Below are positions 4,691 to 41,886 of a stretch of 64,000 nucleotides of DNA, piece after piece. The notes beneath the pieces are model-generated. The model was not told the DNA's origin. It searched no databases and saw only the letters and a program-made list of their open reading frames with translations. Each line of letters starts with the position of its first letter. The stretch's first letter is position 1. The translations under genes were made by a program, and so were the position numbers. The stretch spans positions 845 through 64,844 of the forward strand of contig JBBRND010000024.1 in NCBI GenBank assembly GCA_038230515.1, in the 5' to 3' direction. This DNA is from Bacteroidia bacterium (GTDB lineage: Bacteria; Bacteroidota; Bacteroidia; AKYH767-A; 2013-40CM-41-45).

Positions 4691-4712
4691 AGATATGTAT
4701 TTTCATAGGGGT

Positions 4713-8740: not shown

Positions 8741-8766
8741 TTTTTCCTTTTTGCAAATATCAAGAA

Positions 8767-9510: not shown

Positions 9511-9512
9511 CG

Positions 9513-10445: not shown

Positions 10446-10620
10446 ACCGTTGCCCTTTAATGGGACATCCCGCCTTGCGGGATTGGAACGAACAACGGTC
10501 AGGCCAATCCTTTCATTGCTTTACTTTTTGATAAGCGTATGTTAGCTTAGCATTGGTTCTAATGCGATTTGATCAAATCTTTGCTTTTAGAACCATGTGT
10601 ACTACTCGCAAGAATAGTAC
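10446..10620. promoter_or_regulatory. Cluster of nested inverted repeats, including the perfect 14-bp palindrome GATTTGATCAAATC flanked by a 9-bp inverted repeat TGGTTCTAA/TTAGAACCA; candidate recombination or regulatory site upstream of the tyrosine recombinase
   Basis: Read directly in the sequence. The pairs are ACCGTTG/CAACGGT, ATCCCGC/GCGGGAT, TGGTTCTAA/TTAGAACCA, GATTTGA/TCAAATC and GTACTA/TAGTAC. Confidence 0.35.
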
Positions 10621-10665
10621 CGATTAGGCCCGCCCGGTTCGTTCCAGGCGGGTCTTATTCGTTGT

Positions 10666-11544
10666 ATGAATAAAATCATAAAAGAGTATTTAGAGTGGAA
10701 GGGGACTTACGCACCGAGAGCCAGTGTGAATTATAAAATTTGGCTTGACAGATTTGTAGAAGAGTGTGGTGAGAAACAACTTGACAGGTATGATGTATCT
10801 GACCTAGTAAAGTATCGCAATTGGGTGGAAGATCACTATAGTCCTTGCACAACTTCGCTGGCAATGGTTGTGATCAAAAATTTTCTTCAATTTTGTAAAA
10901 CACAAAATTACACCTGTCTCTCACCAACACTTGTCCGGCTGCCAAGAATAATTGCAAAATCTCATCGTGCTGTAACAGAGGACGAATTTCATAGAATCAT
11001 TTCTGTAATTCCTCAAAGTGAATTCATGTCGCTTCGAGATTTGCTCTTGATTCGCATGTTATGGGACACAGGAGTCCGTGTTTCGGAGCTTTGCGACCTA
11101 GATTTGTCTCAGATCAACGAAAATAAAAGATCAGCAGTTATTCAAACAAAAAAGACAGGAAAGAAACGAATTATTGTATGGTCTGAAGAGACACACAAAC
11201 TTCTTATGAAGTATGTACCAATGCGATTGGAGTTACACAAATTCAATCGTGCAAACGCACTCTTTATCGGATGGCGGAAGGGAAGGGGATGGAGTCTCCG
11301 GCTTACCACAAAAAGTGTACAAAGGACAATCAGATATTTTGTAGACCGAGCTGGCATCAAAGAAAAAATTACACCTCATAGTTTCAGGCATGGTTGGGCG
11401 CACAAGCGCAGAGATCAGAATGCTCCTCTTGCTTTTATTCAAAGGGGATTGGGTCACATAAATCCTATCTCAACTTTTGTCTACGAGCAATACAATGACT
11501 TGGAGTTTGAGAGAAATGCAAATACCTACTTAAAAGTAGCTTAA
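10666..11544 (+). CDS. Tyrosine site-specific recombinase (XerC/XerD-like small integrase)
   Basis: 292 aa. N-terminal SAM-like DNA-binding region. C-terminal catalytic motifs '...HSFRHGWAHKRRDQNAPLAFIQRGLGHINPISTFVYEQY' contain the R..H..R..Y residues. Confidence 0.8.
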   Translation: MNKIIKEYLEWKGTYAPRASVNYKIWLDRFVEECGEKQLDRYDVSDLVKYRNWVEDHYSPCTTSLAMVVIKNFLQFCKTQNYTCLSPTLVRLPRIIAKSHRAVTEDEFHRIISVIPQSEFMSLRDLLLIRMLWDTGVRVSELCDLDLSQINENKRSAVIQTKKTGKKRIIVWSEETHKLLMKYVPMRLELHKFNRANALFIGWRKGRGWSLRLTTKSVQRTIRYFVDRAGIKEKITPHSFRHGWAHKRRDQNAPLAFIQRGLGHINPISTFVYEQYNDLEFERNANTYLKVA

Positions 11545-11628
11545 TATTCCCAGCATATTCAATACTTTCGAACGGCATTTAAATAAAATGCCGTTTGCTT
11601 GTTTTTAATAACATAGGAACACTAGCCA

Positions 11629-14600: not shown

Positions 14601-14676
14601 TAATCGAGCAAGGAGTATGAACATGCAAATCCCACTTACACCATTCTGACCCACGATGAAAATTTCTTTCGCTCAT
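11629..14676 (-). CDS. PHP-domain phosphoesterase fused to an SMC/ABC-type ATPase (Ppl-like single-gene defence candidate)
   Basis: N-terminal 'WDLHVHTPCS' and a later 'DCSDAHYF' His cluster, both PHP hallmarks. Walker A 'GNKGNGKS'. Long coiled-coil middle. ABC signature 'LSPGERGALL', Walker B 'LVIDQPEENLD' and His-switch 'VTHNP' at the C-terminus. Confidence 0.75.
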   Translation of the reverse strand: MSERNFHRGSEWCKWDLHVHTPCSIIQGYGGDTETAWEKFITDLEKLPPTFKAIGINDYIFLDGYRKVLEYRLKGRLQNIDLILPVIELRLDKFASLGSEDPWKKVNFHIIFSDTLAANVIERNFLNAVQHKLKFDVDGSEEDFNEIVTADTLIQLGKKVKEKSAKSISDSDLKTGFNSLTFNFEILFQKLEATTFKDKFLTAVGKSEWDTMRWDGSPGTKRTVINKANFVFSALESADSYERQKQKLTEQNVNDKLLDCSDAHYFSDSADKDRIGNCSTWLKANTTFEGLKQVANESTRIFVGDLPPLKKRVHENPNRYIKKLSFQKLSDSRLDEIWFENVEVEINSGLVAIIGNKGNGKSALTDCIGLVGNTQNCGDFSFLGKTKFRAPRPNRAESFNAYLTWETNTTDEQYLANDPHPTSIEKVKYIPQGFLEKLCNENHENFEDELRNVIFTHIPDAEKFGKNNLEELAKFRTDTIQNDIDQTLLDLKQTNAIVVELEKKDTDSYKNLLASNLEQKKKDLLAHNQIKTPAKEAPSDPKIVEKNKEVSAQIEAKRKQQADLEKLIAESSGKQKAINVSVASLEKILGSLSLLETQYQKIKGEITPTLTANEINIEDVIKFEITRDKINSKITELRGELTSINTLLDLNNTESLPKKLSVLKEQLAILQNTLDEPSKQFQKYLNDLAEWTTIEKSITGDEEQYGTLKYYEGELKYIETQLKTDLSEATTLRKDILIKLFGKKNDILNIYKTFYKPITDFIESYGGVLEQYEIKLDIENKMAAFEDRFFAPISAGAKGSFIGITEGREKLNSILNQHEWKTAEGITALLDDIVDNLKNDTREGLGRPKREIEKQLKSDFSVEELYDFLFGLEYLEPTYKLKLNNKNISELSPGERGALLLIFYLALDQNNIPLVIDQPEENLDNQSVFKLLAQFIKKAKDKRQIIIVTHNPNLAVVCDADQIIHVKIEKHNKNKVIINSGALENPTINKTVVDILEGTYEAFDTRDTKYKVIPR

Positions 14677-14769
14677 TTTGTACTGGTTTAAAATTAATTT
14701 CTTAAATTATTATTCGCACAATTTACACAAACTTAGATTTTAAAAATATATTTAGACTTTTATTTTAGC

Positions 14770-15114
14770 TTATAAAAGCTGAGAAATCTCTAGTCCATAT
14801 TTTCTGATCTCCGACATGAGAGGGGATTCAAGTTCAGCATATTCTGAAAGGGAAGCAGGGAAGGGCTCAATACGGGTATCAACTTTTCTTCGCTGCTTGA
14901 AAAGGTATTGCATTTCGTCAACGTTGTCGCTCCCGAACTTTGGTGAAACCACGCACACATCAATATCACTGGTTCCTGTTGCTTTATTTTTTGCATGAGA
15001 ACCAAAGACCACAAGCTTGCTGATAGGGATACCGCTGCGCTGTAAAAGCCTCCCGAATTGGAGAACCTTTTCCTGTACACCTTTATTCAATATGAACTCT
15101 GTTTTTTTATCCAT
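14770..15114 (-). CDS. Nucleotidyltransferase (MNT / MntA-like, Pol-beta superfamily)
   Basis: Motif 'VVFGSHAKNKATGTSDIDVCVV' (GS...D.D). Overlaps the HEPN gene by 28 nt. Confidence 0.75.
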   Translation of the reverse strand: MDKKTEFILNKGVQEKVLQFGRLLQRSGIPISKLVVFGSHAKNKATGTSDIDVCVVSPKFGSDNVDEMQYLFKQRRKVDTRIEPFPASLSEYAELESPLMSEIRKYGLEISQLL

Positions 15115-15479
15115 AAATATAAATTTGTTGTTTCACTGAAATATTTTTCAGTATAGGCCTCGGTTGCTTTCTTAAAAAACTTGAATTTGTAATCGTCATA
15201 CCGCGCTTTGATATTAAATGTATTGATCTCATCCATTAAATCAAGTTGCTCTTTTGAAAATGGAATTCCCGTCAACCCACTAAGCACAGATAAATTATGT
15301 TCATAGGGCGCCTGCTCTCCGGTTTTTTGCACTACTGCCGCTTTGAGAATTTTCTCAATCATCAGGTGGCAAAAGAAAAGAGAGTGTGAGAATCGTTTTG
15401 AAGAGAAAAGGGATTGAGCGGTTTTATAATCTTCTTCGGCACTTACGAGCCAATATTCAATTACATGACTTGCTTTCAC
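15087..15479 (-). CDS. HEPN-domain protein (HepT-like toxin partner of the MNT)
   Basis: 130-aa alpha-helical ORF with the 'AEEDYKTAQSL...HLMIEKILKAA' HEPN pattern, immediately upstream of and overlapping the nucleotidyltransferase gene. Confidence 0.65.
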   Translation of the reverse strand: MKASHVIEYWLVSAEEDYKTAQSLFSSKRFSHSLFFCHLMIEKILKAAVVQKTGEQAPYEHNLSVLSGLTGIPFSKEQLDLMDEINTFNIKARYDDYKFKFFKKATEAYTEKYFSETTNLYLWIKKQSSY

Positions 15480-16164
15480 ATGCTCATTGTAACACAGAGG
15501 ATAGGGGGAGGCAAGCGATCATTTCCACAGATGGGAATGCTTGCATCCGTTTTGGACTATGTTATACTCATGTCAGAAAGATTTTCTCAATGGGTTGAAA
15601 TATTGTGCAAATAGAAAGTATGCAATCCAATTTAATGTCGCACAATATATCTTAGGGAAAGTCAAGTTTGTTGAAAAATAAGGATGGAATCACTCGAAAT
15701 AGCCGTTGTGATTACATTTTCTTGTGTGTAGCGATCTGTGGAGTACAGGCAGCGATTTTCAGGATTCATTTAGGAAAGATTGGCATTGCCCGAAAGGGAC
15801 TCTCCGAGGCATCGGAGATGGAACGAACAATGCGAATTAAGTTAGACAACGGTTTGCGCAGCAGTGCAAGCCCGGCTCCATAGGTCGCTGTGCATAACAG
15901 CGGTCGTCATTATCAGCCAAACACACATTCAAGGAAACATGCAACTATTCAACATTTGCACAAAGAAGGACTATGAAAAAAACGGGGAACAAAAAACAAA
16001 GTGGTACAAAGTCGGAGTCATGAAGATAGCGGATAGCGGAAAAAAGTACATCAAACTTTTTCAGCAGCCGTCAACGGAATTCTTCGTCTTCGACAAAGAA
16101 GAAAATCCACAACAGGCAGAAGCGGGGAAGTAAAGCAACCCCTTATCAACCTAACAAAAACTGT

Positions 16165-16650
16165 ATGCAGCAATCGGGAACGACACCTGTACCCAATGTT
16201 CTTTTTGATTCCTGCCTGAAAGAATTAAAGTGCGCTGAACTCAAAGTGCTGCTTGTCATCATCCGGCAAACGCTTGGCTGGGCAGACAAACAAAGTGCTC
16301 TCGGTCGAAAGGAAATGGATTGGATTTCGGGGAGCCAGTTGAAAGTGAAAACCGGAAGTTCATCCCGCGCCATTTCAGCAGCAATCGAAGTGCTGATTAA
16401 AAAGGCACTCATTGAAGTTCTGGATGGACATGGAAATTTGCTTCATGATCCAACCATTCGTAAAGGAAGACAGCGCCTGTATTTCCGCCCTGCTTCAGTA
16501 CTTATCACACCTGTGGATAACGTGGGTATAAGCAGTGCATATCCCCTGCATTCAGAAAAAGCTTCTGCAAAAATTGCAGAGGGCTTCAGCAAAAAAATAA
16601 CTGGGCTTGCGCAAAAAATGCACATAACAAAAGAAACTCTACAAAAATAA
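16165..16650 (+). CDS. Phage/plasmid replication-initiator-like winged-helix protein (putative)
   Basis: 'LKELKCAELKVLLVIIRQTLGW...ISGSQLKVKTGSSSRAISAAIEVLIKKALI' resembles replisome-organiser / Rep N-terminal HTH domains. It sits directly upstream of a methylase/antirestriction module. Confidence 0.35.
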   Translation: MQQSGTTPVPNVLFDSCLKELKCAELKVLLVIIRQTLGWADKQSALGRKEMDWISGSQLKVKTGSSSRAISAAIEVLIKKALIEVLDGHGNLLHDPTIRKGRQRLYFRPASVLITPVDNVGISSAYPLHSEKASAKIAEGFSKKITGLAQKMHITKETLQK

Positions 16651-16762
16651 CTCTACAAAATTAGTAAGAATAAAAAAAAGAAAAATTCTTTTGCCTTTTG
16701 TCTTTGTCTTCATGAACACAAAAACTCGACACCTCTTTTTTCTTTTTGTTGTTTAACAATCC

Positions 16763-17107
16763 ATGAATTCAACTCGAAAATTATCAATCAACATGAAACA
16801 CAAAAACGCAACACCAAAAAATAATGATGACGAAACATTCCCCTTCACTTCCATCCACCTTGCAAAATTCAAGCGTGAATTGAAAGAAGCCGGAAGCTTC
16901 TTCAACCTCATGATTCAGAAAAAAGCACTCAGTAAAAAAATGGGAATGAAATACATTTCCCTGTACTACAATGCTGAAAAGTATAAACAGAAATTCCTGA
17001 CAAGAGAATATAAATCACTTCGTCCCATGTACGATACAGACATGCCGTACATCTTCTGGAGCGCGTTGCATGAAGCGCTCTTAAAAACCGAACCTGAAAG
17101 CGTATGA
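16763..17107 (+). CDS. Hypothetical protein translationally coupled (ATGA) to the Dam methylase; has a paralog fragment at 21490..21687
   Basis: The 4-nt overlap with the next start is read from the sequence. The C-terminal half aligns with the ORF at 21490. Confidence 0.45.
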   Translation: MNSTRKLSINMKHKNATPKNNDDETFPFTSIHLAKFKRELKEAGSFFNLMIQKKALSKKMGMKYISLYYNAEKYKQKFLTREYKSLRPMYDTDMPYIFWSALHEALLKTEPESV

Positions 17108-17889
17108 AGCCACCCCTGACCTACTACGGGGGAAAGCAAAAACTGTCGCAACTTATTCTGTCACTCATACCAAAGCACAACCTCTATTGTGAACCATTTT
17201 TTGGAGGCGGTGCAGTATTCTTTGCCAAAAGCCCTTCACAGATTGAGGTAATTAACGATACCAACGGAGACCTCATTACTTTTTACCGAGTAGTAAAAAA
17301 CAACTTCAAAAAACTACAGAAGGAAATACAGCCCACGCTGCACAGCAGGGAACACCACCAAGCGGCAAAGATTGTACTGGGCTATCCACGCCTCTTTGAT
17401 GAAATAAAGCGCGCCTGGGCGATCTGGACGCTTGCAAATGAAAGCTACGGCTCACGCCTTGATAACTCATGGGGCTATGACAGGAAGAAAAACACCTCGG
17501 CAAAACGGCTGCACCGCAAACGGGATAATTTCATTACGGATTACTCAAAACGATTAGAAGAAACAGAAATTGAAAATACCGATGCACTCAAAGTGATTGA
17601 GACTAGAGATAGCAAAGACAGTTTCTTCTACTGCGACCCACCGTACTTCAATTCTTCCAAAGGGCACTACCGGAATTACTCAGAAGAAGATTTTGAAAGT
17701 CTCCTGAAGTCGCTCTCCTCCATCAAAGGGAAATTTTTACTCAGCTCATATCCATCAGCTATTCTTCGCAAGTACATTCGAAAAAACCACTGGCATACCA
17801 AAGAAATTGAAATGTCGGTTGATATGACTGCGAAGTATCAATCGAACAAAAGAAAAACAGAAGTGCTGACTGCAAACTATCGGATGTGA
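17104..17889 (+). CDS. dam: DNA adenine methyltransferase (Dam-like N6-adenine MTase, D12 class; orphan)
   Basis: N-terminal 'YYGGKQKL...YCEPFFGGGAVFF...NDTNGDLITFY' and catalytic 'FFYCDPPY' motifs. Confidence 0.85.
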   Translation: MKPPLTYYGGKQKLSQLILSLIPKHNLYCEPFFGGGAVFFAKSPSQIEVINDTNGDLITFYRVVKNNFKKLQKEIQPTLHSREHHQAAKIVLGYPRLFDEIKRAWAIWTLANESYGSRLDNSWGYDRKKNTSAKRLHRKRDNFITDYSKRLEETEIENTDALKVIETRDSKDSFFYCDPPYFNSSKGHYRNYSEEDFESLLKSLSSIKGKFLLSSYPSAILRKYIRKNHWHTKEIEMSVDMTAKYQSNKRKTEVLTANYRM

Positions 17890-17981
17890 TAGTCGCAATC
17901 AAACGTTGATTTTTTTTACTGCAATTTTTTTCCGAAAAGATTTTTCATAACAGTTCTTTAAACAATTAAATCAAACTAAAT

Positions 17982-18881
17982 ATGGAAAATGCAAATCAAA
18001 CCGTTCAAACGCGTGATGTCTACGACATGGTCACTGAGCGCGTAATCACTCTTCTTGAAAAAGGAGTCGTGCCGTGGAAACAAACCTGGACTGAATCCGG
18101 TCTTCCGCAAAACCTCATTACCGGAAAGCCATACCGGGGAATCAATGTCTGGCTGCTCCTATCACTTGACTATCCGAAAAACTTCTTCCTCACATTTGCA
18201 CAAGCGAAAGAGTTAGGAGGGAATGTCAAGAAAAATGAGAAGGGACACCTGATTGTTTTCTGGAAGTGGATCGAGAAGGAAAACAAAGTCAGTCATGGGA
18301 TGGAGAAGATTCCTTTGCTGCGTTACTACAAAGTGTTTAACGTTGCGCAGTGTGAGGGTCTTCCTGAAAAAAAGATTCCCGAGACAACAAAACCCAATGA
18401 TCCGATTGGTGAATGTGAAAAGATCGTTGAACTCATGCCGAAGTGTCCTGAGATCAAGTTTACAGGCAGTCAGCCCTATTACAATCCAGTGCTTGACTTC
18501 ATCAACATGCCTAAGATAAAAGATTTCCAGAGTAGCGAAACCTACTACGAAACTCTTTTTCATGAGTTGGTACACAGTACCGGACATCAGAGCAGGTTGA
18601 ACCGAAAGGAGGTGACAGATTCCCGCTTTGGTAGCGCTCTGTATTCCATAGAGGAATTGACGGCTGAACTCGGTTGCTGCTACCTGAAGTCCTGTGCCGG
18701 TTTGAAAGAAGTTGTGCGGGATAACAACGTGGCATATTTGCAAGGGTGGCTGAAGAGACTACGTAGTGACAAGAAGTTCATTGTGTATGCAAGCGCACAG
18801 GCGCAACGTGCTGTTGATTTTATTCTGAATGTCATTCCTCGCAGCACTGATGAACCAATGGTAGAGGAGGTGTTATCATGA
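17982..18881 (+). CDS. ardC: ArdC-like antirestriction protein (ArdC-N ssDNA-binding domain + HExxH zincin domain)
   Basis: N-terminal 'VVPWKQTW...GKPYRGINVWLL' ArdC-N pattern. 'FHELVHSTGH' metallopeptidase motif. Confidence 0.75.
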   Translation: MENANQTVQTRDVYDMVTERVITLLEKGVVPWKQTWTESGLPQNLITGKPYRGINVWLLLSLDYPKNFFLTFAQAKELGGNVKKNEKGHLIVFWKWIEKENKVSHGMEKIPLLRYYKVFNVAQCEGLPEKKIPETTKPNDPIGECEKIVELMPKCPEIKFTGSQPYYNPVLDFINMPKIKDFQSSETYYETLFHELVHSTGHQSRLNRKEVTDSRFGSALYSIEELTAELGCCYLKSCAGLKEVVRDNNVAYLQGWLKRLRSDKKFIVYASAQAQRAVDFILNVIPRSTDEPMVEEVLS

Positions 18882-19099
18882 ATAATACATCAAGGAGTTC
18901 AACCGTATCAAAACGACTTTTGAAAGTGTATCGCGGACATTTCTGTTTGCGATTCGGTCACGTGTACAAATCGCATCCTGTAATTCGTCTCGGAGGAATT
19001 TATCTTTCCGCGCTTGATTTTCAGATTGGAGATGAGATTGAAGTTTATGCAGAGCGTGGCATGATTTTAATTACGAAGGTGGGTTCAGAAAGTGTTTGA
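18878..19099 (+). CDS. SymE-like (AbrB/SpoVT-fold) toxin family small protein
   Basis: 73 aa. 'PVIRLGGIYLSALDFQIGDEIEVYAERGMILITKV' matches the SymE/swapped-hairpin pattern. Overlaps the ardC stop (ATGA). Confidence 0.5.
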   Translation: MNNTSRSSTVSKRLLKVYRGHFCLRFGHVYKSHPVIRLGGIYLSALDFQIGDEIEVYAERGMILITKVGSESV

Positions 19100-19158
19100 A
19101 AAGTAAAGCCCGAGCAGTCGGGCTTTTTTAATACAATAAATCACAAAGGTCAAATACT

Positions 19159-19947
19159 CTAGTTTTTTTTCAGATTGAATTGGTAGTTGAGGTTTATATT
19201 GCAAATTTCCGTTGCGAGTATAACTAAGTAAAACCCGGGTACTGAATAGAAAATTGTTTTGTCACCATATCTATCTCTTATATCAGTACTATCATTAAAT
19301 TTTCGCCTAGTTACGTTTGATATGGATATTGATTCAAGAGTACCTTCCTTAAGAGCATATGATCTTAAAAATCCCCTATAGATAACATTCTCATTTTCTG
19401 ACTTTACCATTACATCAAGGAAAACAGCATCAATTTCAGGAATGTCCCTAAAGGTCACTTTTTTTTGAGTAAAATCTCTTCTATTCTCCTTAAAAAAAAC
19501 CGTTTGTCCGGTAAGTGTATAAAACCACGGATTTGCGAAACGAATTGACTTGAACTGTAAGTCTAAATTACATTCTCTAATCAGAACTCTAGAAAGCAAA
19601 CCACCGAATACTCCTACCAAACAAGTCAAGGAATTATACAGTATTATTTTTCCGAAACTTAATTTGATAGCATCCGAAATTTTATCATAGTTATTATTGC
19701 TCGGAGATGACCAAAGTAAGTTTATGACGTACTTAAAATTTATTTCACAAGAGGGGACGAGACTGTTTATGAAAAAAATAAATATTGAGTGTATAAAAAT
19801 TGAAACACCGACTATTTCACCAAGCTCTTGGAGTGCTGATTTCTTTAAGGATGAACGATCAAAATCTCCTGAGAAAAAAACAAAACTGAAAAGAAATCCA
19901 GGAAGGATTATTAAAAGGATTAGAAGAGTTGATGTTGCTAATGTCAT
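19159..19947 (-). CDS. Hypothetical multi-pass membrane protein
   Basis: 262 aa with several hydrophobic helices in the first ~120 aa. Coupled (ATGA) to the upstream 81-aa ORF. Confidence 0.45.
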   Translation of the reverse strand: MTLATSTLLILLIILPGFLFSFVFFSGDFDRSSLKKSALQELGEIVGVSIFIHSIFIFFINSLVPSCEINFKYVINLLWSSPSNNNYDKISDAIKLSFGKIILYNSLTCLVGVFGGLLSRVLIRECNLDLQFKSIRFANPWFYTLTGQTVFFKENRRDFTQKKVTFRDIPEIDAVFLDVMVKSENENVIYRGFLRSYALKEGTLESISISNVTRRKFNDSTDIRDRYGDKTIFYSVPGFYLVILATEICNINLNYQFNLKKN

Positions 19948-21489: not shown

Positions 21490-21687
21490 ATGATAAGCAA
21501 GCACGCTCTTGAAATGAAAAATGGCATGAAATATATCCTGCATTACTACGATACAAAAGGATACAAGAAAAAATATCTGGTCGGATTGTACACGCCGCTT
21601 CGTGATTTTTATAAGACTGACATTCTATTTCTCTTCTGGGATGAAATGCTGAGTGTCCTCGAAAAGATGGAAGCAGAACAAGTATGA
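21490..21687 (+). pseudogene. Fragment paralogous to the C-terminal half of the 16763..17107 ORF
   Basis: 'NLMISKHALEMKNGMKYILHYYDTKGYKKKYL...' aligns with 'NLMIQKKALSKKMGMKYISLYYNAEKYKQKFL...'. Confidence 0.4.
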
Positions 21688-22488
21688 AGCCACCCCTCAC
21701 GTACTACGGGGGAAAGCAAAAGCTAGCTAAATATATTTTACCACTCATATCTAAGCATAAGCTTTACTGCGAGCCGTTCTTTGGAGGAGGTGTTATCTTC
21801 TTCGCAAAGGAGCCATATGAAATTGAAGTTATCAATGACACCAATGGCGACCTGATCAATTTTTACAGTGTAGTCAAGAATCGTTTTAATGCCCTCAAGA
21901 AAGAAGTTAGGGTGACACTTCCGAGCAGAGAGCACCATCACACGGCAAAGCTTGTTATAGGTTATCCTACGCTCTTTAATGATGTGAAGCGCGCGTGGGG
22001 CAATCTGGACACTAGCGAATCAGAGCTATGCGTCTCGACTTGCTAACTCATCGGGCTTTGACCGGAAAAGAAATACTTCTGCAAAACGCCACTACCATAA
22101 GCATAAGAACTTCATTCGTGACTACTAAAAAAGGCTTGAACAGACCGAAATAGAAAACAGTGATGCAATACATGTCATCACCTCACGCGACAGCAAGAAC
22201 AGTTTTGTCTATTGTGATCCTCCCTACATCAATACGGACATGGGACATTATAAAAAGTATTCGAAACAGGATTTCGAAATCCTGCTACACACCTTGTCTT
22301 CAATCAAAGGAAAATTTTTGTTGAGTTCGTTTCATTCTCCATTACTCGCACGATTCACACAAAAAAATAAATGGAACACAAAGAAAATTGATATGCCTCT
22401 TAACGTGACAGCCAAATACAAAAGGCATAGCCGCAAGCAGGAAGTCATCACAACAAATTACCGACAGCCGGCTCGTTTGCAAAATTAA
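21684..22488 (+). pseudogene. Dam-like adenine methyltransferase pseudogene (frameshift near 22030 and TCA>TAA nonsense at 22127-22129)
   Basis: The first 120 aa are ~80% identical to the 17104 Dam. The reading frame is then lost. The downstream frame still encodes 'VYCDPPYINTDMGHYKK...', interrupted by 'DY*KRLE'. Confidence 0.7.
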
Positions 22489-23895: not shown

Positions 23896-24966
23896 ATGAG
23901 CAGTTTATTTTATAAAAAATTATCTACAGCAAGAAAGATGTCAGGACTTTCTCTGCAAGAATTAGCTGATAGAACTGGAGTATCAAAAAGCGCAATTTTC
24001 AAATATGAAAATAATGAAATGATGCCCGACAGCGCGTCCTTGATCCGGCTTTCTGAGATACTGGATGTAAACATGGGATATTTTTTTAACGATGAATTAT
24101 CTGGCAATATAGAATTAATCGATATTGAATACAGAGAAGAATTCAAGTTGGGTGATACCGAAATTGATACCATAAAAAAAAATGTGGAAAATTACCTTGA
24201 GCGTCTTTTCGAGTTAGAGAAAGTTGCGGATGTTGCTCCTGAAAGATTTAAAAATCCAGTCGAGGGAATACGAATAAAATCTGTGAGTGATGTGACAAAA
24301 GCAGTGAAGGTACTGAGAAGAAAATGGCAGATAGCAACCACAGCTATTTCTAATGTAATTGGTTTGATTGAAAGTAAAGGTATAAAAGTTTATCAAATTC
24401 TTCAGTCGGAAAAATTCGAAGGATTTTCTGCCTGGGCGGGTGAAGTGCCGGTAATTGTTGTCAATGGAAATATCCAAGAAGTAACTCGAGTGCGCTTCAC
24501 AGCACTTCATGAACTTGGGCATATTGTATTGTGCGTTGAAGATGATTTATCAGATGAGAAGATTGAAAGGATCTGTGATGCTTTTGCTGGTGCGATGTTA
24601 TTTCCAGATGACTTGGTTGTTGCTGAACTCGGGAGTAATAGAAAAAAAATTTCACTCGAAGAATTAAAGTTAGTAAAGGAGAAATACGGAATATCCATTC
24701 AGGCAATTATGGTAAGGGCAGCAAATGTTTCAATAATAAGCTGGGATACATACAATAAATGGAAACAATATTATTTATCGCTGACAGGAACTAATCAAGA
24801 TTTTGGAAAATTTAGTTCTGATGAATCCCCAAAAAGATTTAGTCAAATGTTGTTTAATTGTATTGCGGAGGAAAAAATTTCAATTGCCCGTGCTGCAGTG
24901 CTATCGGATAAAAAAATTAGCACTCTTAAAAAAGAAAAAATAATACATGAATGCTTCTACAATTAG
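23896..24966 (+). CDS. XRE-family HTH fused to an ImmA/IrrE-type zinc metallopeptidase (COG2856-like)
   Basis: N-terminal 'LSLQELADRTGVSKSAIFKYENNEMMP' HTH. 'ALHELGHIVL' HExxH motif in the C-terminal domain. Confidence 0.7.
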   Translation: MSSLFYKKLSTARKMSGLSLQELADRTGVSKSAIFKYENNEMMPDSASLIRLSEILDVNMGYFFNDELSGNIELIDIEYREEFKLGDTEIDTIKKNVENYLERLFELEKVADVAPERFKNPVEGIRIKSVSDVTKAVKVLRRKWQIATTAISNVIGLIESKGIKVYQILQSEKFEGFSAWAGEVPVIVVNGNIQEVTRVRFTALHELGHIVLCVEDDLSDEKIERICDAFAGAMLFPDDLVVAELGSNRKKISLEELKLVKEKYGISIQAIMVRAANVSIISWDTYNKWKQYYLSLTGTNQDFGKFSSDESPKRFSQMLFNCIAEEKISIARAAVLSDKKISTLKKEKIIHECFYN

Positions 24967-24972: not shown

Positions 24973-25359
24973 ATGATTGCTATCTTTAATGACCCCGATG
25001 ACATAAGCCTTTTCCGCGCTTCCATCAGAAAAAATGATGGGAGTGAACTTGATTTTTTTGTTTCGGATTTGACACTACATGAACATGGGAAATCCTTTTT
25101 TCTCAACCTAAAAATTGAGTTCGTTAAGGAGGTTTCATTTAACGGAGGTGAGATGAAGAGCATCGTAAATTTGTACCATGAGAACAACAAAAATTATTCA
25201 ATCGGTAATTGCTCGAATTTATTTTTTGCCCAGCAACATCATGCCCTTATAATAACAAACGATGCGATAATTGTGGCTATTGCAAGAAAGTATCGTTTAG
25301 AAGCCATCTCCACAAAGTATCTCAAAAAAACTCTCAGATTAATTTCAATAAAACAATAA
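24973..25359 (+). CDS. Hypothetical protein downstream of ImmA/IrrE (possible PIN-like/DUF4411-type partner)
   Basis: 128 aa with 'HALIITNDAIIVAIARKYRLEAIS' near the C-terminus. Only weak resemblance to PIN-like folds. Confidence 0.3.
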   Translation: MIAIFNDPDDISLFRASIRKNDGSELDFFVSDLTLHEHGKSFFLNLKIEFVKEVSFNGGEMKSIVNLYHENNKNYSIGNCSNLFFAQQHHALIITNDAIIVAIARKYRLEAISTKYLKKTLRLISIKQ

Positions 25360-25663
25360 AAATAAAAAATATGAAATAAAAAACCGGCCCGAAGACCGGC
25401 TGTAATTTTGATCGTAAGTCTGAATTCAGAACTTTAGGAAGGTCACTGAATTCTGATGCAAAGAAAAGTATTCTTTCTTTACCAAACAAATCTTTTCAGC
25501 TTCATCGCCCGGGAAATCTCCCAAACCTGAATTCACCATTTGGCGTGAGCCAAATCTGTGGCTATAATTCATGTGCCCAAAATTATTTCTGTGAAAAGTT
25601 TCTGACGCTTGTAGCCTGCATTGAAATATTTCACTTTGTTTCAAATCAAAATTATTATTAAAA

Positions 25664-26107
25664 ATGAAAAATAATACAATTAAATTTATAATTAACGACA
25701 AGCATTTTGAATCCGATGAACAGTACATTCTAGGTGCTAAAGTTCGGGCAATAGGAAACATATCGAAGGATGATGAAATCTTCCTTGCTATCAAACGCCC
25801 GTGGGAAGACGAGTCAATTGCTGATGATACGAAAGTTGATTTAGCGCGTCCCGGTATTGAACATTTCTTCTCCAAAAAACATGGCGAAGAGAAGTTGGTT
25901 TCAATTTATGTTGACAACATCGAAAAGAAAATCTCACGTGGTAAACACTCCGTTGCTGAGATAAAAAAAATCGGTGGTGTTCCTGCTTCATATGAATTGG
26001 AAGAGGTAATTGATGGAAAGCTCACACCGCTTGATGACAACGCAGTAGTGCTAATTAAAGGGGGTGAAAAGTTTTTCGGTCATGTTCGCGATGGTTCCTC
26101 ATCTTAA
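25664..26107 (+). CDS. Multiubiquitin-domain protein (ubiquitin-like modifier of a Bil-like / 6E-type conjugation system)
   Basis: 147 aa, predicted beta-grasp-rich, ends in '...KGGEKFFGHVRDGSSS'. Directly followed by E2-like and JAB-E1 genes. Confidence 0.5.
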   Translation: MKNNTIKFIINDKHFESDEQYILGAKVRAIGNISKDDEIFLAIKRPWEDESIADDTKVDLARPGIEHFFSKKHGEEKLVSIYVDNIEKKISRGKHSVAEIKKIGGVPASYELEEVIDGKLTPLDDNAVVLIKGGEKFFGHVRDGSSS

Positions 26108-26115
26108 TTTCAGCT

Positions 26116-26451
26116 ATGAACTTTGACGAGAATCAAATTGCCGAGTTAAAGCAGATAACCCCTGACCTGAGTTGTGCTCAGGAAGGGGGTTATAACTACA
26201 TCTTAATAAAAGATCTTCGCTTGCCTGATAATTGCAAGCCCGAAGTGGTTGATGCATTGCTGTGTTCAACACCAAGAGATGGTTACGAGTCAAGATTATT
26301 TTTTTCTGCACTGATTACCGGATGCCACCAAAGGAATTGGAATGGAAACATTCGAGTGTTAGAAGGAAACTGGTATGCAGTTTCTTGGAAGGTTCCGGGC
26401 GGGCTGAAGCTTGCTGAGATATTAATGGTCCATCTTAAAGCATTACGATGA
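26116..26451 (+). CDS. Prokaryotic E2-like (UBC-fold) protein, putative
   Basis: 111-aa ORF with conserved Cys candidates ('LLCSTPRDGY', 'ITGCHQRNW'). Its stop overlaps the JAB-E1 start (ATGA). Confidence 0.45.
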   Translation: MNFDENQIAELKQITPDLSCAQEGGYNYILIKDLRLPDNCKPEVVDALLCSTPRDGYESRLFFSALITGCHQRNWNGNIRVLEGNWYAVSWKVPGGLKLAEILMVHLKALR

Positions 26452-27783
26452 ATGAGAAATAAATACAAAGTATGGTTCAAAATACCAAAGCAAATTCATT
26501 TGAAGATGCTTGGTGATTTAAGAAGATCTCATTCGTTCGCTTACGAAAGAGTGGGTTTTTTATTTACGACTTCGAAGTTACTTTCAGATAACACCATTCT
26601 TGTTTTGGCAAAAGATTATTCTCCAGTCGATGATAAAAATTACATTGATGACAATAAAGTTGGTGCAAAAATAAACTCAACTGCTATTCGGAACGCAATG
26701 CAAAGAGTCATGGAAAATAACGAGGGGTGTTTTCATGTTCATTTGCACAATCATACAGGTGCTACCTATCCAAGCCGCACTGACGAAGTAGGATTACCAC
26801 CAGTAGCAAAAAGTTTCGCTAACGTTTCTCCGAATCAGGCGAGCGGAATTTTAATATTAAGCGAAGATTCTTTTTACGCATCAGTAATTTGTCCAAACGA
26901 AAAAAAATTTATTACTCCTGAATTGATTTCAGTTGTCGGTTATCCTCTTAATCTATGTTTCCCGGGAGCAAAAATGAATGCAAGAAGAAAATCACTCGAC
27001 AGGCAATCATTCCTCGGAGTAAAGTCTCAGCATGTTTTTGAAAACATAAAAGTTGGAATTATTGGATATGGAGGAGGGGGTTCTCACATTGGTCAGCAAC
27101 TCGCACATCTGGGGGTAAAGAACATTTTAATTTTTGATGACGACAAAGTTGAAGAAACTAATCTTAACCGTTTAATAGGTGCATGGTTTAGTGATGTAAA
27201 AAAAGCTGTCTTAAAAATAAATGTAGCCAAGCGAATTATTAAAAAAATTCTTCCTTCAGTTCAGATAGTTTGTATAAATAAAAGATGGCAGGAAAAAGCT
27301 GAACTTTTACAACTCTGCGATGTAGTTTTCGGAAGTGCTGATACTTATGCAGAACGTCAGCAATTAGAAGCTGAGTGTAGACGCTATCTGATACCTTTAA
27401 TTGATATCGGAATGGATGTGCATATATTGGATAATGCGTATGAAATGTCTGGACAAATAATTCTCTCAATGCCGGGTTCACCGTGCATGAAATGTTTTGG
27501 TTTTCTAACCGACAAAAAGCTGGCGTTAGAAGCAGCAAAGTACGGAGATGTCGGGGGAAGACCACAAGTTGTCTGGGCAAACGGTGTGTTAGCGTCTACG
27601 GCTGTCGGAGCATTTGTGGATTTAGCCACTGGCTGGACAAAGACAGAGGACAAACTTATTTATCTGTCATATGGTGGAAATAAAGGAACACTGGGTAACC
27701 ACATTCGATTGGAATATGCTGAAAAAATTTGTACTCACTATACATTTGATCAGTTAGGGGTACCTGTTTTTAAAAAATTCTAA
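26452..27783 (+). CDS. JAB/MPN deubiquitinase-like domain fused to an E1-like (ThiF/MoeB) adenylyltransferase
   Basis: JAMM motif 'HVHLHNHTGATYPSRTDE' in the N-terminal half. Rossmann 'VGIIGYGGGGSHIGQQLAHLGVKNILIFDDDKVEETNLNRL' E1 motif in the C-terminal half. Confidence 0.75.
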   Translation: MRNKYKVWFKIPKQIHLKMLGDLRRSHSFAYERVGFLFTTSKLLSDNTILVLAKDYSPVDDKNYIDDNKVGAKINSTAIRNAMQRVMENNEGCFHVHLHNHTGATYPSRTDEVGLPPVAKSFANVSPNQASGILILSEDSFYASVICPNEKKFITPELISVVGYPLNLCFPGAKMNARRKSLDRQSFLGVKSQHVFENIKVGIIGYGGGGSHIGQQLAHLGVKNILIFDDDKVEETNLNRLIGAWFSDVKKAVLKINVAKRIIKKILPSVQIVCINKRWQEKAELLQLCDVVFGSADTYAERQQLEAECRRYLIPLIDIGMDVHILDNAYEMSGQIILSMPGSPCMKCFGFLTDKKLALEAAKYGDVGGRPQVVWANGVLASTAVGAFVDLATGWTKTEDKLIYLSYGGNKGTLGNHIRLEYAEKICTHYTFDQLGVPVFKKF

Positions 27784-27825
27784 AATTTATTATTATTATT
27801 ATTATTCCATCTTATACAATAAAAA

Positions 27826-27852
27826 AAGCCACCCTGTTACGGATGGCTCTCT
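27826..27852 (-). terminator. Hairpin + A/T tract terminator remnant at the 3' end of the truncated paralog
   Basis: 'aaaaaaagccaccctgttacggatggctc' is an imperfect version of the perfect hairpin at 31646-31676. Confidence 0.4.
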
Positions 27853-28216: not shown

Positions 28217-29167
28217 ATGAAAAAAATCATTTTTATCAGCTATTCGACATTGGATAATGACAAGGTGGAGATATTAATATCTGAATTAAGCGCAACTGAA
28301 AATTTAACTCCTCTAGTGATCGCAGCAAATCGAGAAGCATTGAAGCCCCTGGCAAATAAAGTTGCTGAAGGAATTAATGGCTCTTGGGTCATCGTTCCTG
28401 TAATTACAAAAAAATCAATGTCAACTCAATGGCTCAATCAGGAAATTGGGTATGCTCAAGCGCGCGGAGTAAAAATTATGCCTATTGTTGAGAAGGGAGT
28501 GATCAACGACTTAAAAGGATTTATACATAAACAAATTGATCTCCCTTACACCTTCCTTTTATCTGATTCCGATCATAATAATGACAACTTTCGGGCTGCG
28601 ATAAAAACATTGATTAATGATCTGGAAAAACATTTGCCTATAGTACCTAAAGTTGAACCTGTCAAAACTCCATTTGAAAAAAGTCTTGACTTGGCGGACA
28701 TCGTAGAAAAGGAACAGAGTTATAAAAAGGAGAAAGAAAAATTTCTTGGTTCTCACACCGCATTTGAAATGGCCCAGCAGGAGGTTCTCACAAATATGTT
28801 CAAAGAAATAAGAGAAAAGATCAACGCGCTTCATACTAGGAAAATGTTTTGCGGTACCGAGGAAGATAATCTGCAGTTTTTGTTTATGGTCAACTGTGAG
28901 GGCTTCAACTTGGTTATTCAATTCTATTTACCTTATTTTAATTCCCTCCAGGAGTCCATACTTTACGTAAAATACATGAGTTCTTACGCTCAACCAAAAG
29001 AGGTTAAAAACATGCAATTCATTTTCGATAAAAACGAAGCGGGGCAAATAGGCTGGTTAAATCTAAAGCAGCGCAAACTTTATCTCTCGCAGCAAATCGT
29101 TGATGATGGCTTCGCCTGGATAGTCGAACAAGTCTCATTGAAAAGAAAGGGAATAACGGAACTTTAA
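28217..29167 (+). CDS. TIR-domain protein (N-terminal TIR/TIR-like ~140 aa + C-terminal domain of unknown function)
   Basis: 'KIIFISYSTLDNDKVEILISEL' first strand and 'VIVPVITKKSMSTQWLNQEIGYAQ' (S..W...E, putative catalytic Glu) match TIR/DUF1863 patterns. Confidence 0.6.
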   Translation: MKKIIFISYSTLDNDKVEILISELSATENLTPLVIAANREALKPLANKVAEGINGSWVIVPVITKKSMSTQWLNQEIGYAQARGVKIMPIVEKGVINDLKGFIHKQIDLPYTFLLSDSDHNNDNFRAAIKTLINDLEKHLPIVPKVEPVKTPFEKSLDLADIVEKEQSYKKEKEKFLGSHTAFEMAQQEVLTNMFKEIREKINALHTRKMFCGTEEDNLQFLFMVNCEGFNLVIQFYLPYFNSLQESILYVKYMSSYAQPKEVKNMQFIFDKNEAGQIGWLNLKQRKLYLSQQIVDDGFAWIVEQVSLKRKGITEL

Positions 29168-29185
29168 CAATATTGATCTGAAAAA

Positions 29186-30586
29186 ATGGAGGCCACCTTC
29201 TTTTTAAAAATAAAGATTAAACCCGAGTTTAGTTCAATTCAGGAAATTTGGAATGTGCTTTTTGATGCAATTTTATATGTCACAAAAACAGACATTCGAT
29301 TTACGCTAAGGATAAATACGCCAAAACGAATTTTTGGTCCCCAGGAATCTTTCCAGACTTCGTACAGGTTATTTTTTGATGTCATTTCTTTCACTCCCGA
29401 TGCAAATTATACGATAGTCAAAAAAATTATTTTCAGTGAGGAAAGTATCAGAGGACACTCAACCACTGATTCAGGTAGTTCCATCGACATCAAATTCAAT
29501 TCGATAGAATTTGAAATCGAAAATCAGTATTCAACTGAAGATGAAATTTTCTGCATGTATTACGGTAACGTAATTTCCTATAATGATTTTTACAAAGAGT
29601 ATCATCTTGATCCAACGCTTAAACCAACTTTTAAATTAGAGCGCAGAACTGAACCCTTTCATGTCCTCAATTCAAAAATTTCCATCAGACCCGAAATATA
29701 TGTGAACATAAAGGATAAAACGAAAGAGACCGTTTTCGGAAAAGAATCATTTATTAATATCAAGTGCGACTTGGATGTAGACGCAACCATTCACTGTGTA
29801 AACGTACTTGATTTAATTTTCTCATTCTATTACCGAAAAATGATTCAGTGCAATTTCATTAAATACCTAGTAAACAGAAAAGGCAAGATAGTTTACAAAA
29901 TATCTGACAACGTAGAAAATGAGCGATGCCCGACATATCATTTGGGAATGCAAAATAAGTTCATGCTTTTGTACAATATCAACTTTGAGATCATACAGAG
30001 TAATTATGAAACATTTTTTGACATTATAAACCTATACATCAACGCTTCCTACTCAAAAGATAACAAATCAAAATTTATTCTCCATTTTTTGGCGCTTGAA
30101 TTGTTGAAAGCAAAATTCGGGAACGAAGAGCGAAGCAATTTTATTTTCAAAAATATTAACTTGAAAAATCGAATCAGAACGTTTCTTATTGACTTGGCTA
30201 ATTATCTATCATTACAAGAAAAAGAAAGTAAAACACTTAATGAAAAACAGAGAGAAGATAATTTGACAACTGAAAAGGAAATGCTAACATGCCCCTCTAA
30301 AGTGGGCTATCTTGAGGACACAATAATTTTAAAGGCTATGAGCCATCAGTTTAAGCGATTGATGGATATCTATCCTATGGATCTGTCCAAATATGGGGTT
30401 GATTTACGGATATTAACAAAATTGCGTGGGAAAATATTTCATGGAAGCACATTAAAACCCATAGACGAAACAAATTTAAAAGAAATATGCGTTCGTGAAC
30501 GTCTTCCAAAGTTCATTACGGAATTGATTGTAAGGGTTATGGGTGGAAATCCTGAAAATTACAATCGAAATATTTATGACGGATAA
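29186..30586 (+). CDS. Hypothetical protein (466 aa), middle gene of the TIR / AlbA_2 cassette
   Basis: Clean ORF, 18 nt after the TIR gene stop. No recognisable motif. Confidence 0.5.
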   Translation: MEATFFLKIKIKPEFSSIQEIWNVLFDAILYVTKTDIRFTLRINTPKRIFGPQESFQTSYRLFFDVISFTPDANYTIVKKIIFSEESIRGHSTTDSGSSIDIKFNSIEFEIENQYSTEDEIFCMYYGNVISYNDFYKEYHLDPTLKPTFKLERRTEPFHVLNSKISIRPEIYVNIKDKTKETVFGKESFINIKCDLDVDATIHCVNVLDLIFSFYYRKMIQCNFIKYLVNRKGKIVYKISDNVENERCPTYHLGMQNKFMLLYNINFEIIQSNYETFFDIINLYINASYSKDNKSKFILHFLALELLKAKFGNEERSNFIFKNINLKNRIRTFLIDLANYLSLQEKESKTLNEKQREDNLTTEKEMLTCPSKVGYLEDTIILKAMSHQFKRLMDIYPMDLSKYGVDLRILTKLRGKIFHGSTLKPIDETNLKEICVRERLPKFITELIVRVMGGNPENYNRNIYDG

Positions 30587-30655
30587 GTTATTTAAGTTAA
30601 CATATCGATATATGAATAAATGATTTTAACTAAACCTCGCTGAAAATAATTTATC

Positions 30656-31618
30656 ATGGAAGATTACACCTCACGGATCTATACTCTTAAGGACATTCAG
30701 AATTTTATTGCGACTAAAGCTGAGGAAACTACTTACCTCGAATTCAAGGCGGCAGGAGGATTAAGTACTATGCCTTCGGTTAAGGACGAAATTACAAGAG
30801 ATGTTTCCTCGTTCGCAAATTCGGACGGTGGTCTTATTATATATGGTTTAATGGAAGCGAATCATATAGCTGATAGTCTTGACTTCGTGGACGGAAAGGT
30901 TTACACAAAGGAATGGTTGGAACAGATCATTGGGCGAATTCAAAGAAAAATACAGGGTGTTGCGATATACCCGATACGAGTCAACAATAATTTTAAAAAA
31001 TCAATTTACGTTGTAGAAATTCCACGAAGTGTTGATGCACCGCACAGAGCAGCTGACGGTAAATTCTATAGAAGAAGCAACTTTGTACGTACCATAATGG
31101 AGGAATACGAGATTCGAGACATGTATAGTCGGACAATTAAAACGGAGTTGGAAATTCTTGAACCAAAGGTAAATTCAAGAGGTGAAAGTTACTCTCAGGG
31201 GACGCTTGATAAATATCAAGTAAGTATGGACATTGAAATACAAAATATCGGTAAAGCGATAGAAAAAATGTATAAAGTAGAGGTTATAGTTCCAACCCAT
31301 CTTGTGAATACAACAGGCCTAATTTACACAACCCCCTTTTTTTCAAAGTTCTCTCGTACAGAAGGGGATTATGGAATTTATACTTTCCCTCACCAATCTG
31401 AGCTTTACCAAAGTGAGATATTCGCTGTGCCTAGTGCAAACTTTTTTATGACTCAACAGACATTTAATTTGTTGCAAACGCTGCCTATAATAATCAAACT
31501 CTATTTTTCTGGTGGGCAAAGAGAAAAAAATCTGTATCTCACAGAAAACCTGAAGCATAAGCCAAAGAGTGGTGGTATCGAGCACGATTTAAAAGAAGAA
31601 TGTTTCATGAAAGAATGA
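30656..31618 (+). CDS. AlbA_2 (Schlafen-like, 'divergent AAA') DNA/RNA-binding domain protein
   Basis: 'TYLEFKAAGG...VSSFANSDGGLIIYGL' and 'IYVVEIPRSVDAPHRAADGKFYRRSNFVRTIMEEYEIRDMY' closely match the AlbA_2 consensus. Confidence 0.7.
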   Translation: MEDYTSRIYTLKDIQNFIATKAEETTYLEFKAAGGLSTMPSVKDEITRDVSSFANSDGGLIIYGLMEANHIADSLDFVDGKVYTKEWLEQIIGRIQRKIQGVAIYPIRVNNNFKKSIYVVEIPRSVDAPHRAADGKFYRRSNFVRTIMEEYEIRDMYSRTIKTELEILEPKVNSRGESYSQGTLDKYQVSMDIEIQNIGKAIEKMYKVEVIVPTHLVNTTGLIYTTPFFSKFSRTEGDYGIYTFPHQSELYQSEIFAVPSANFFMTQQTFNLLQTLPIIIKLYFSGGQREKNLYLTENLKHKPKSGGIEHDLKEECFMKE

Positions 31619-41570: not shown

Positions 41571-41656
41571 TTTTGAAGTATCGCTTCTGTTATTCTGGCT
41601 ACGGAATGAAATAAAAAAAGCCTCAATAGGGCTGCTATCAAGGCTTCCATCGTTTG

Positions 41657-41740
41657 TACCCGGGACGGGAATTGAACCCGTACGGCCTCGCGGCCACAGG
41701 ATTTTAAGTCCTGCGTGTCTACCAATTCCACCACCCAGGC
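41657..41740 (-). tRNA. tRNA-Leu (anticodon TAA), type II with a long variable arm
   Basis: Reverse complement folds as acceptor GCCTGGG, D-arm, anticodon loop CTTAAAA and a long extra arm. T-loop GGTTCAATTCC. Confidence 0.8.
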
Positions 41741-41812
41741 AGAAAAAAATTAATCGTTAATCGTTAATGGCAATTCCTATTAACTATTAACGATTAACAC
41801 TTTACTTTCAAA

Positions 41813-41886
41813 GAGCGGATGACCGGGCTCGAACCGGCCACCTCGACCTTGGCAAGGTCGCGCTCTACCAAATGAGCTACATCCGC
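41813..41886 (-). tRNA. tRNA-Gly (anticodon GCC)
   Basis: Reverse complement GCGGATGTAGCTCATTTGGTAGAGCGCGACCTTGCCAAGGTCGAGGTGGCCGGTTCGAGCCCGGTCATCCGCT is a canonical cloverleaf. Confidence 0.85.

Follow-up and report, generated by a model that had tools for sequence, protein, structure and literature searches.

The window analysed here comprises 64,000 nucleotides of a Bacteroidia bacterium (GenBank assembly GCA_038230515.1, contig JBBRND010000024.1, positions 845 to 64,844) and carries, at 25664-27783, a cassette of three genes coding for a ubiquitin-like protein (Ubl), an E2-like protein and a fusion of a JAB metallopeptidase with an E1 domain (JAB::E1). It represents a variant of the structurally characterised Bub pathway ('6e', Type I-like), divergent in sequence and lacking BubE, and not a Bil system. 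With a probability of about 0.72, by analogy with Bub, it would work as a self-contained module of Bub type ('6e', Type I-like) for Ubl conjugation, by the mechanism set out below. A preliminary description of the same DNA had correctly placed three co-oriented open reading frames of 147, 111 and 443 residues here, the first two separated by 8 nucleotides. The ATGA overlap that it reported between the second and third genes was a misreading: the stop codon of the E2 gene (TGA, 26449-26451) abuts the start codon of the fusion (ATG, 26452), leaving a gap of 0 nucleotides, and the ATG of the ATGA string present at 26448 is out of frame. The genes and domains are the following.

25664-26107, plus strand: Ubl gene, BubA-like ('Ubl2'), 147 residues, C-terminus ...HVRDG144-S-S-S147
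26116-26451, plus strand: gene of the BubB-like E2 (UBC fold), 111 residues, with no requirement for a catalytic Cys; Ser90 codon at 26383-26385
26452-27783, plus strand: JAB::E1 fusion gene, 443 residues in a single open reading frame
26452-26961, plus strand: JAB/JAMM metallopeptidase domain, about residues 1-170, where the phmmer alignment with Citrobacter BubCD spans the JAMM motif
26995-27783, plus strand: ThiF-type E1 adenylation domain, about residues 182-443

To our knowledge, Bub is the only ubiquitin-like cascade that runs wholly on oxyester (Tyr, Ser) and not on thioester intermediates. In the scheme of Ye, Gong, Chambers and Corbett (bioRxiv 10.1101/2024.11.21.623953), Type I Bub (6E.1), from Citrobacter sp. 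RHBSTW-00271, consists of BubAB (a Ubl-E2 fusion), BubCD and BubE (DUF6527), while Type II consists of BubA, BubBD and BubE, every Bub operon being said to possess bubE. According to the same work, the cascade proceeds via oxyesters: BubCD has no catalytic Cys and requires Y370, and BubB uses S333 together with H335 and D299. BubAB of Citrobacter is cut after G229, the JAB domain exposing a reactive C-terminal Gly, and the structures deposited are PDB entries 9ea4, 9ea5, 9eae and 9eav, with 9ea4, 9ea5 and 9eav as crystal structures of BubCD (bioRxiv 10.1101/2024.11.21.623953). Previously, Iyer, Burroughs and Aravind (2006) had defined a '6e' class from Proteobacteria, Actinobacteria and Cyanobacteria, made up of a polyUbl, an inactive E2/RWD-like protein, a JAB-E1 fusion and a metal-binding protein Y (PMC1779556). 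The '6E-type' label of the preliminary description was apt, since the Ubl, E2-like and JAB::E1 proteins of the window are of this class.

All three proteins have their closest counterpart of known structure in the Type I Bub pathway of Citrobacter. In the case of JAB::E1, the best sequence match in the PDB is Citrobacter BubCD 9ea4 (phmmer, E-value 6.7e-14), in an alignment that covers the JAMM motif and continues into the E1 part, and the identity to BubCD proteins of DUF6527-containing operons amounts to 27-32%. The order of a JAB domain followed by an E1 domain, regarded at first as less characterised, is thus that of the crystallised BubCD. As already noticed in the preliminary description, the JAMM-region motif HVHLHNHTGATYPSRTDE (residues 95-112 of the 443) is N-terminal and the ThiF domain (Pfam, residues 186-411, E-value 1.3e-30) C-terminal in one protein; the Prok-JAB match is weak (E-value 0.053), and the top NCBIfam scores are those of ThiF/MoeB models, all far under cut-off.

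The residues expected of such enzymes were followed in an alignment of 29 sequences, namely the window protein and those of 26 related loci together with, for comparison, a homologue from a Methylovirgula plasmid and the BubCD of a Mesorhizobium. Invariant throughout are the JAMM set (E32 and H97-x-H99-x8-S108-x2-D111), the E1 nucleotide loop GxGGxGS (G205-S211) and the E1 residues N237, N239, R240, D318 and D322. R240 lies within NLNRL and is paired by phmmer with the NLNR of BubCD, which we take to contain the adenylation Arg R227 of Ye et al. Also invariant are C345/C348 (a CxxC) and C427/H429, which likely form the structural Zn site of ThiF/MoeB-type enzymes. Moreover, Tyr364 of the crossover loop (nucleotides 27541-27543; AAKY-G..G..PQVVW) is found in all 29 sequences, its counterpart in Mesorhizobium BubCD being the Tyr of that loop, while the loop holds no Cys other than those of the CxxC at 345/348. 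A Cys-less crossover loop together with an invariant Tyr constitutes a Bub signature. Hence, the lack of an E1 catalytic Cys, which had been put forward as an argument against the assignment, is no valid objection, given that Bub works via a loop Tyr and an E2 Ser.

No match was found for the E2-like protein in Pfam (even at E-values up to 10, PF14462 included), NCBIfam or PADLOC, and the preliminary description, which called it UBC-like, was right as to the fold. Its model (predicted local distance difference test score, pLDDT, of 87) has a UBC/BubB fold, and in a Foldseek search Citrobacter BubB, by far the closest structure, was the sole match at probability 1.00, with a template modelling (TM) score of 0.73. 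When a profile of the family was run against PDB sequences, only chance-level matches were returned and BubB was not recovered. The likeness to BubB is seen at profile level and not as pairwise sequence similarity: 204 family members compared with 121 Prok-E2_E (PF14462)/BubB sequences gave a probability of 95.6% and an E-value of 1e-8, the confident part of the alignment covering residues 1-58 only. The family comprises 68 clusters at 90% identity in a word-indexed search, and a set of 1.84 billion proteins contains 330 of its representatives at 50% identity, nearly all of them stand-alone proteins of about 111 residues.

As regards the nucleophile, Ser90 is the sole invariant one of the family (199 of 199 non-gap sequences) and would most likely be the candidate. 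Cys50 is substituted in 39 of the 204 members, being Val in the Methylovirgula protein. Further near-invariant polar residues are Y57, S/T59, R60, N74 and H106. In the extended alignment with the 121-sequence profile, S90-W91 falls on the S-W of the BubB S-W-H motif, which lends weak support to a possible equivalence of Ser90 with the BubB Ser.

The Ubl had been described as a multiubiquitin-like beta-grasp protein, and this is borne out by the match of residues 7-71 to Pfam Multi_ubiq (E-value 6e-10) and by the two beta-grasp units of its AlphaFold2 model. Across the clade, the Ubls carry two or three beta-grasp domains (about 150 or 225 residues, respectively). They end in [D/E]-G-x-S-[S/A]-stop in 28 of 28 loci, in 120 of 120 database homologues and in the Methylovirgula plasmid protein. 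The length of the x-S-[S/A] tail is constant over 148 Ubl sequences and Gly144 is invariant, while the Ser codons of the tail differ synonymously and the distance to the next gene varies, from which it follows that the constraint acts at the peptide level. In fact, the tail is retained at the junction of the two rare Ubl-E2 fusions of the clade (P0193, P0198). The split Ubls of two DUF6527 operons end in ...NFG-stop and ...TFG-HGNH-stop, the latter being that of L033. Since variation in length would be the rule for a pro-peptide that is merely discarded, Ser147 is favoured, by a modest degree, as the putative mature C-terminus. The earlier suggestion of a C-terminal Gly exposed by JAB cleavage is doubtful, as the G-x-S-S tail is fixed in length and composition throughout the clade.

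The recurrence of the cassette was assessed by a scan with a profile built from 13 closer sequences, taking one genome per species, by which 29 related loci were found. The order Ubl, E2, JAB/E1 is kept in 27 of them, over at least five phyla, and one of the remaining two stops just short of the E2 gene, so that its Ubl could not be checked. Such a recurrence of the three-gene order is far beyond chance. The phyla concerned are Bacteroidota, Verrucomicrobiota, Planctomycetota, Binatota and Kiritimatiellota, to which alphaproteobacterial plasmids have to be added. Carriers include Chitinophagaceae, Sphingobacteriaceae, Cytophagales, Opitutaceae, Planctomycetota, Binatia and Kiritimatiellae, the closest relative of the window cassette being that of a Ferruginibacter metagenome-assembled genome (MAG); plasmid-borne cassettes occur in Spirosoma and in several Alphaproteobacteria, including Methylovirgula (L031). 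In Opitutaceae, Planctomycetota and Alphaproteobacteria (L017-L020, L022, L024-L026, L031), JAB and E1 are encoded by separate, overlapping genes, and the fusion is therefore not fixed in the clade. Neither 50,697 phage genomes nor the IMG/VR contigs contained any relative of JAB::E1 or of the E2, which argues that the cassette is not phage-borne. Clustering of all open reading frames neighbouring the related loci yielded no universally conserved fourth gene, only regulators, and the Bub-associated phosphotransferase, looked for as a fourth gene, is absent.

Taken together, what the window cassette shares with Type I Bub is a Multi_ubiq-type Ubl, an E2 of BubB fold with no required Cys, a JAB domain that has an intact JAMM motif and precedes, in one polypeptide, a single ThiF-type E1 (with a loop Tyr and no loop Cys), the frequent company of CapH/CapP-type regulators and a place in mobile or defence loci. 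Unlike Type I Bub, the clade is without DUF6527/BubE, its E2 falls outside PF14462 and shows no Ser-x-His motif with accompanying Asp, the window encodes Ubl and E2 in two genes, the Ubl ends in G-x-S-[S/A] and not at Gly, and the identity in JAB::E1 is only 26-32%. The comparison with '6e' runs in parallel: the polyUbl with two to three beta-grasp repeats, the Cys-less E2-like protein, the JAB-E1 fusion and the polyUbl fused to the E2 in some cases and separate in others are common to both, whereas the metal-binding protein (now DUF6527/BubE) is missing here and the clade is mainly one of Bacteroidota and Verrucomicrobiota.

By analogy with Bub, the following mechanism is proposed. The E1 domain would bind the second beta-grasp domain of the 147-residue Ubl and adenylate its C-terminal carboxylate, Tyr364 of the crossover loop would receive the Ubl as an oxyester, and the Ubl would then move to a serine of the 111-residue BubB-like E2, most likely Ser90, to be finally joined to lysines of target proteins by an isopeptide bond. 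The JAB domain is predicted to be an active Zn peptidase. As the clade has no BubE and the Ubl is normally a separate gene, this peptidase would either trim the x-S-S tail or remove the Ubl from its targets. The second role, that of a deconjugase, is slightly favoured, and is the job of BubE in the described Bub operons. The output, to go by the genomic context only, may be antiphage defence or a stress response.

Several observations weigh against this mechanism, or at least against parts of it. Neither the window nor the 29 loci yielded DUF6527/BubE in tblastn searches with two DUF6527 proteins (best E-value 0.03), which covered up to 7 kb of flank per side of each locus; this absence had escaped the preliminary description. 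In addition, no cassette neighbour matched DUF6527 in Pfam, and the annotation of L031 shows no DUF6527 gene within 4 kb. The Ubl terminates in Ser rather than in Gly. The Ser90 segment of the E2 lies beyond the confident alignment, and with a template of two sequences the register differed by five residues. The His and Asp helpers are lacking, position 92 being K, Q, R or N, and the Asp of BubB (Asp63 in L030 numbering) meeting a gap of the family alignment. The E2 could thus be a non-catalytic RWD-like adaptor, as first proposed by Iyer et al. Finally, Bub operons are not known from the literature to protect against phage, so that an antiphage role is hypothetical for the present cassette as well; the preliminary description spoke of an established antiphage system, which is true of Bil and not of Bub.

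These same departures can be read in another way. The clade might represent a third, 'BubE-less' type of Bub, in which the unprocessed Ubl is conjugated via its C-terminal Ser (G-x-S-S-COOH), a lone E2 Ser acts without His/Asp and JAB takes the place of BubE as deconjugase. This is a tentative idea, which we consider possible but less probable than its negation.

The cassette could otherwise be an ordinary Type I Bub whose BubE is encoded elsewhere or was missed, with JAB cutting the Ubl after Gly144 as Citrobacter BubAB is cut after G229. DUF6527-containing operons were recovered on Mesorhizobium and Bradyrhizobium plasmids (L030, L033), and there Ubl and E2 are split as well, which means that the split alone is not distinctive of the window clade. 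The three proteins are Bub-like, the L033 Ubl does possess a disposable tail past its Gly (FG-HGNH), and Gly144 is invariant. Against these points stand the failure to find DUF6527 in the window and in the 29 loci with their flanks, the membership of the E2 in a family of its own and the fixed, protein-level constraint on the x-S-[S/A] tail, and this explanation is held to be unlikely. As a separate observation on the two DUF6527 operons, a 'phosphotransferase' gene of about 500 codons, outside the published Bub scheme, lies between bubCD and bubE (5214-6698 in L030, 4546-6150 in L033).

A much smaller chance is given to a sulfur-carrier or small-molecule module of the CysO/Mec+ or QbsE/QbsD type, in which JAB would trim the Ubl, the E1 would make an acyl-adenylate or thiocarboxylate, and the E2-like protein would be an inactive RWD-like adaptor, with no protein conjugation taking place. 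Trios of JAB, ThiF and Ubl proteins do serve cofactor and cysteine pathways. Such a reading would also be in keeping with the ThiF/MoeB models that score best in NCBIfam, far below cut-off as they are, and with the term 'inactive' applied to the E2-like domain of '6e' (PMC1779556). Nevertheless, none of the loci has a rhodanese, sulfurtransferase or biosynthetic gene next to the cassette, the partner of E2 fold is conserved with an invariant Ser, the loop Tyr is common to the protein-conjugating BubCD, and the cassette is placed, together with regulators of CapH/CapP type, in a mobile defence island.

The weakest alternative is Bil (BilABCD), in which eukaryote-like E1 and E2 enzymes attach the Ubl via Cys thioesters to phage tail proteins and JAB acts as the deubiquitinase: the same four activities, the conjugation logic as effector, a defence-island context and, where JAB and E1 are split (Opitutaceae, Planctomycetota and alphaproteobacterial members), a four-gene layout resembling bilABCD are shared, but the reading is hardly credible and largely refuted by architecture, as the window protein has a single ThiF domain of about 260 residues fused to JAB, whereas the Bil E1 has an IAD-AAD-CYS architecture with a separate JAB (bioRxiv 10.1101/2024.11.21.623953). 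Bil membership thus failed on one ThiF domain, no loop Cys and a non-conserved E2 Cys50, and the nearest structures of all three proteins are Bub and not Bil ones; the 'Bil-like' label of the preliminary description is not retained. Type II cyclic oligonucleotide-based antiphage signalling systems (CBASS, with Cap2/Cap3) were also rejected, since there is no E2-E1 fusion and the PADLOC E1-E2 models cover the Rossmann part only (about residues 190-300, E-values of 4e-10 or higher). No CD-NTase cyclase was found near the cassette in Pfam and PADLOC scans of the window.

Returning to the Bub-type reading, the cassette is preceded by a regulator-like gene pair and a leader, and is followed by a hairpin.

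23896-24966, plus strand: fused XRE helix-turn-helix (HTH)::Peptidase_M78 protein, 356 residues (Pfam HTH_3, E-value 6e-15; Peptidase_M78, E-value 1.4e-13)
24973-25359, plus strand: open reading frame of 128 residues, no family at E-values up to 0.01 (Pfam, PADLOC, NCBIfam)
25382-25402, both strands: GC-rich, terminator-like hairpin with T-runs (terminator scan), which parts the regulator pair from the operon
25420-25535, no strand assigned: three copies, at 25420, 25446 and 25527, of the palindrome-containing motif CTGAATTC(A/T)G (repeat search)
27823-27852, scored on the minus strand: 12-bp hairpin (terminator scan), 40 nucleotides past the operon stop

In PADLOC, the 356-residue protein matches RmrA (E-value 2e-45), capP (2e-19, residues 150-278) and capH (3e-9, residues 2-98). 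It is a candidate stress- or DNA-damage-responsive regulator of the CapH+CapP type contained in one polypeptide, and within the proposed mechanism it would probably repress the operon, with release upon DNA damage or infection. Next to the cassette, 19 of the 29 related loci carry an M78 gene, in some cases accompanied by an HTH gene, and so does the window: a divergent HTH and M78 pair in 7 loci, a different M78 gene in 10, and the fused form in 2 loci and the window. This association fits that of CapH+CapP with Bub, reported for 31% of the described operons (bioRxiv 10.1101/2024.11.21.623953). Like CapH+CapP and RmrA of RosmerTA, it combines an XRE HTH with an M78 peptidase, and it lies directly upstream of the operon. 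CapH and CapP are usually two genes; unlike them, the regulator of the window is fused in one polypeptide and co-directional with the operon.

Homologues of the fused XRE-M78 gene stand at the equivalent position in L001 and L027, and an open reading frame of 128-138 residues always comes after the fused gene (24973-25359 in the window, 5846-6262 in L001 and 5745-6143 in L027). The two equivalents outside the window give sub-threshold PIN matches (E-values of 0.0076 and 0.0005, respectively) and are 21% identical to the window protein, which possibly is a degenerate PIN-like protein. It belongs with the XRE-M78 gene as a partner, rather than with the conjugation operon as a member. The pair could even form a RosmerTA-like toxin-antitoxin module, instead of or besides acting as a regulator of the Ubl operon, and yet the 128-residue protein matches neither RmrT nor any other PADLOC model. 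Both genes had been described as immediately upstream on the same strand; the strand is correct, whereas the terminator-like hairpin and a spacer of 304 nucleotides between the 128-residue frame and the Ubl gene intervene.

Within this spacer, the copies of CTGAATTC(A/T)G are a candidate operator for the HTH regulator, four of the nine strand matches to CTGAATTC in the 64-kb window being found within 115 nucleotides of the leader. Directly 3' of the terminator, in 25403-25535, a TAATTTTG box (Bacteroidetes -7-like) was noticed, the position of which would imply a leader of about 250 nucleotides before the Ubl gene. Rfam recognised three transfer RNAs (tRNAs) only over the window, and no RNA family in the 304-nucleotide leader. 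At the other end, the 12-bp hairpin is the likely 3' boundary of the transcription unit. As a side observation on the regulators, in the four Bacteroidota loci L009, L010, L013 and L015 (at about 2300-4950) the divergent CapP/CapH-like pair has as neighbours a Ser/Thr kinase of 353 residues and a tetratricopeptide repeat (TPR) protein of 513 residues, both of which differ from the CapK (GHKL)/CapS pair of the literature.

On a larger scale, the cassette lies inside an integrative/mobile defence island of a Bacteroidota genome, extending approximately from 7.8 to 33 kb of the window, in which a DUF5655 protein is also present. The features of the island and its surroundings are these.

8767-9510, minus strand: AbiGi-like gene, with a 315-residue partner
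10666-11544: tyrosine integrase
11629-14676, minus strand: SMC_N/AAA_21 ATPase (SMC-like), 1015 residues
16165-16650: Rep_O-like protein
17104-17889: intact Dam-type methylase gene
17982-18881: ArdC-N and MPTase-PolyVal anti-restriction-like protein
21684-22046 and 22240-22488, plus strand: second D12-class adenine methyltransferase, split in two open reading frames
28217-31618, plus strand, directly downstream of the cassette: TIR_2-domain protein (316 residues), a frame of 466 residues that matches no family, and a protein of Schlafen/AlbA_2 type (320 residues)
41656-41886: tRNA-Leu and tRNA-Gly

Upstream of the cassette, in 7793-19947, the AbiGi-like gene with its partner, the integrase, the SMC_N/AAA_21 ATPase and the Rep_O-like and ArdC-N proteins are hallmarks of a mobile element. 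The split D12-class methyltransferase resembles the gene at 17104-17889, of which it would be a copy that has decayed or suffered a frameshift. The TIR_2, 466-residue and Schlafen genes possibly make up one or two further defence systems, and none of them is kept beside the cassette in other loci. C-terminal sorting domains of the type IX secretion system (T9SS) were seen at 95-4690 of the window and mark the host as Bacteroidota-like.

Two further arrangements were encountered around relatives of the cassette. A pair formed by an AAA+ ATPase and an S8 peptidase adjoins it only in two distant hosts, on the Methylovirgula plasmid L031 (5562-8929, downstream) and in a Bacteroidetes MAG, L002 (2561-6036, upstream), and may be either an accessory of the cassette or a defence system in its own right. 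The Nostoc plasmid pNPM1 (L034, 2625-4847) encodes a JAB::E1 that is more remote (26% identity) and comes after hypothetical proteins of 73 and 161 residues, with NYN-domain and CRISPR-associated genes adjoining; no DUF6527 is annotated at that locus, which may be another BubE-less arrangement.

The main interest of these results lies in the invariant non-glycine terminus of the Ubl, in the loss of BubE and in the loss of the E2 helper residues. A widespread sister clade that keeps the E1 Tyr and an E2 Ser, and in which BubE, the terminal Gly and the helper residues His and Asp are missing, offers a natural comparison for Bub, bearing on which features are required by the chemistry, on conjugation via a non-glycine Ubl C-terminus and on the purpose of BubE. 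Since the E2 is annotated as a 'hypothetical protein' and fits none of the models of Pfam, NCBIfam or PADLOC, current defence-system finders miss the cassette. Finally, the clade extends Bub-type systems to Bacteroidota, where phage-defence genetics could make use of native hosts.

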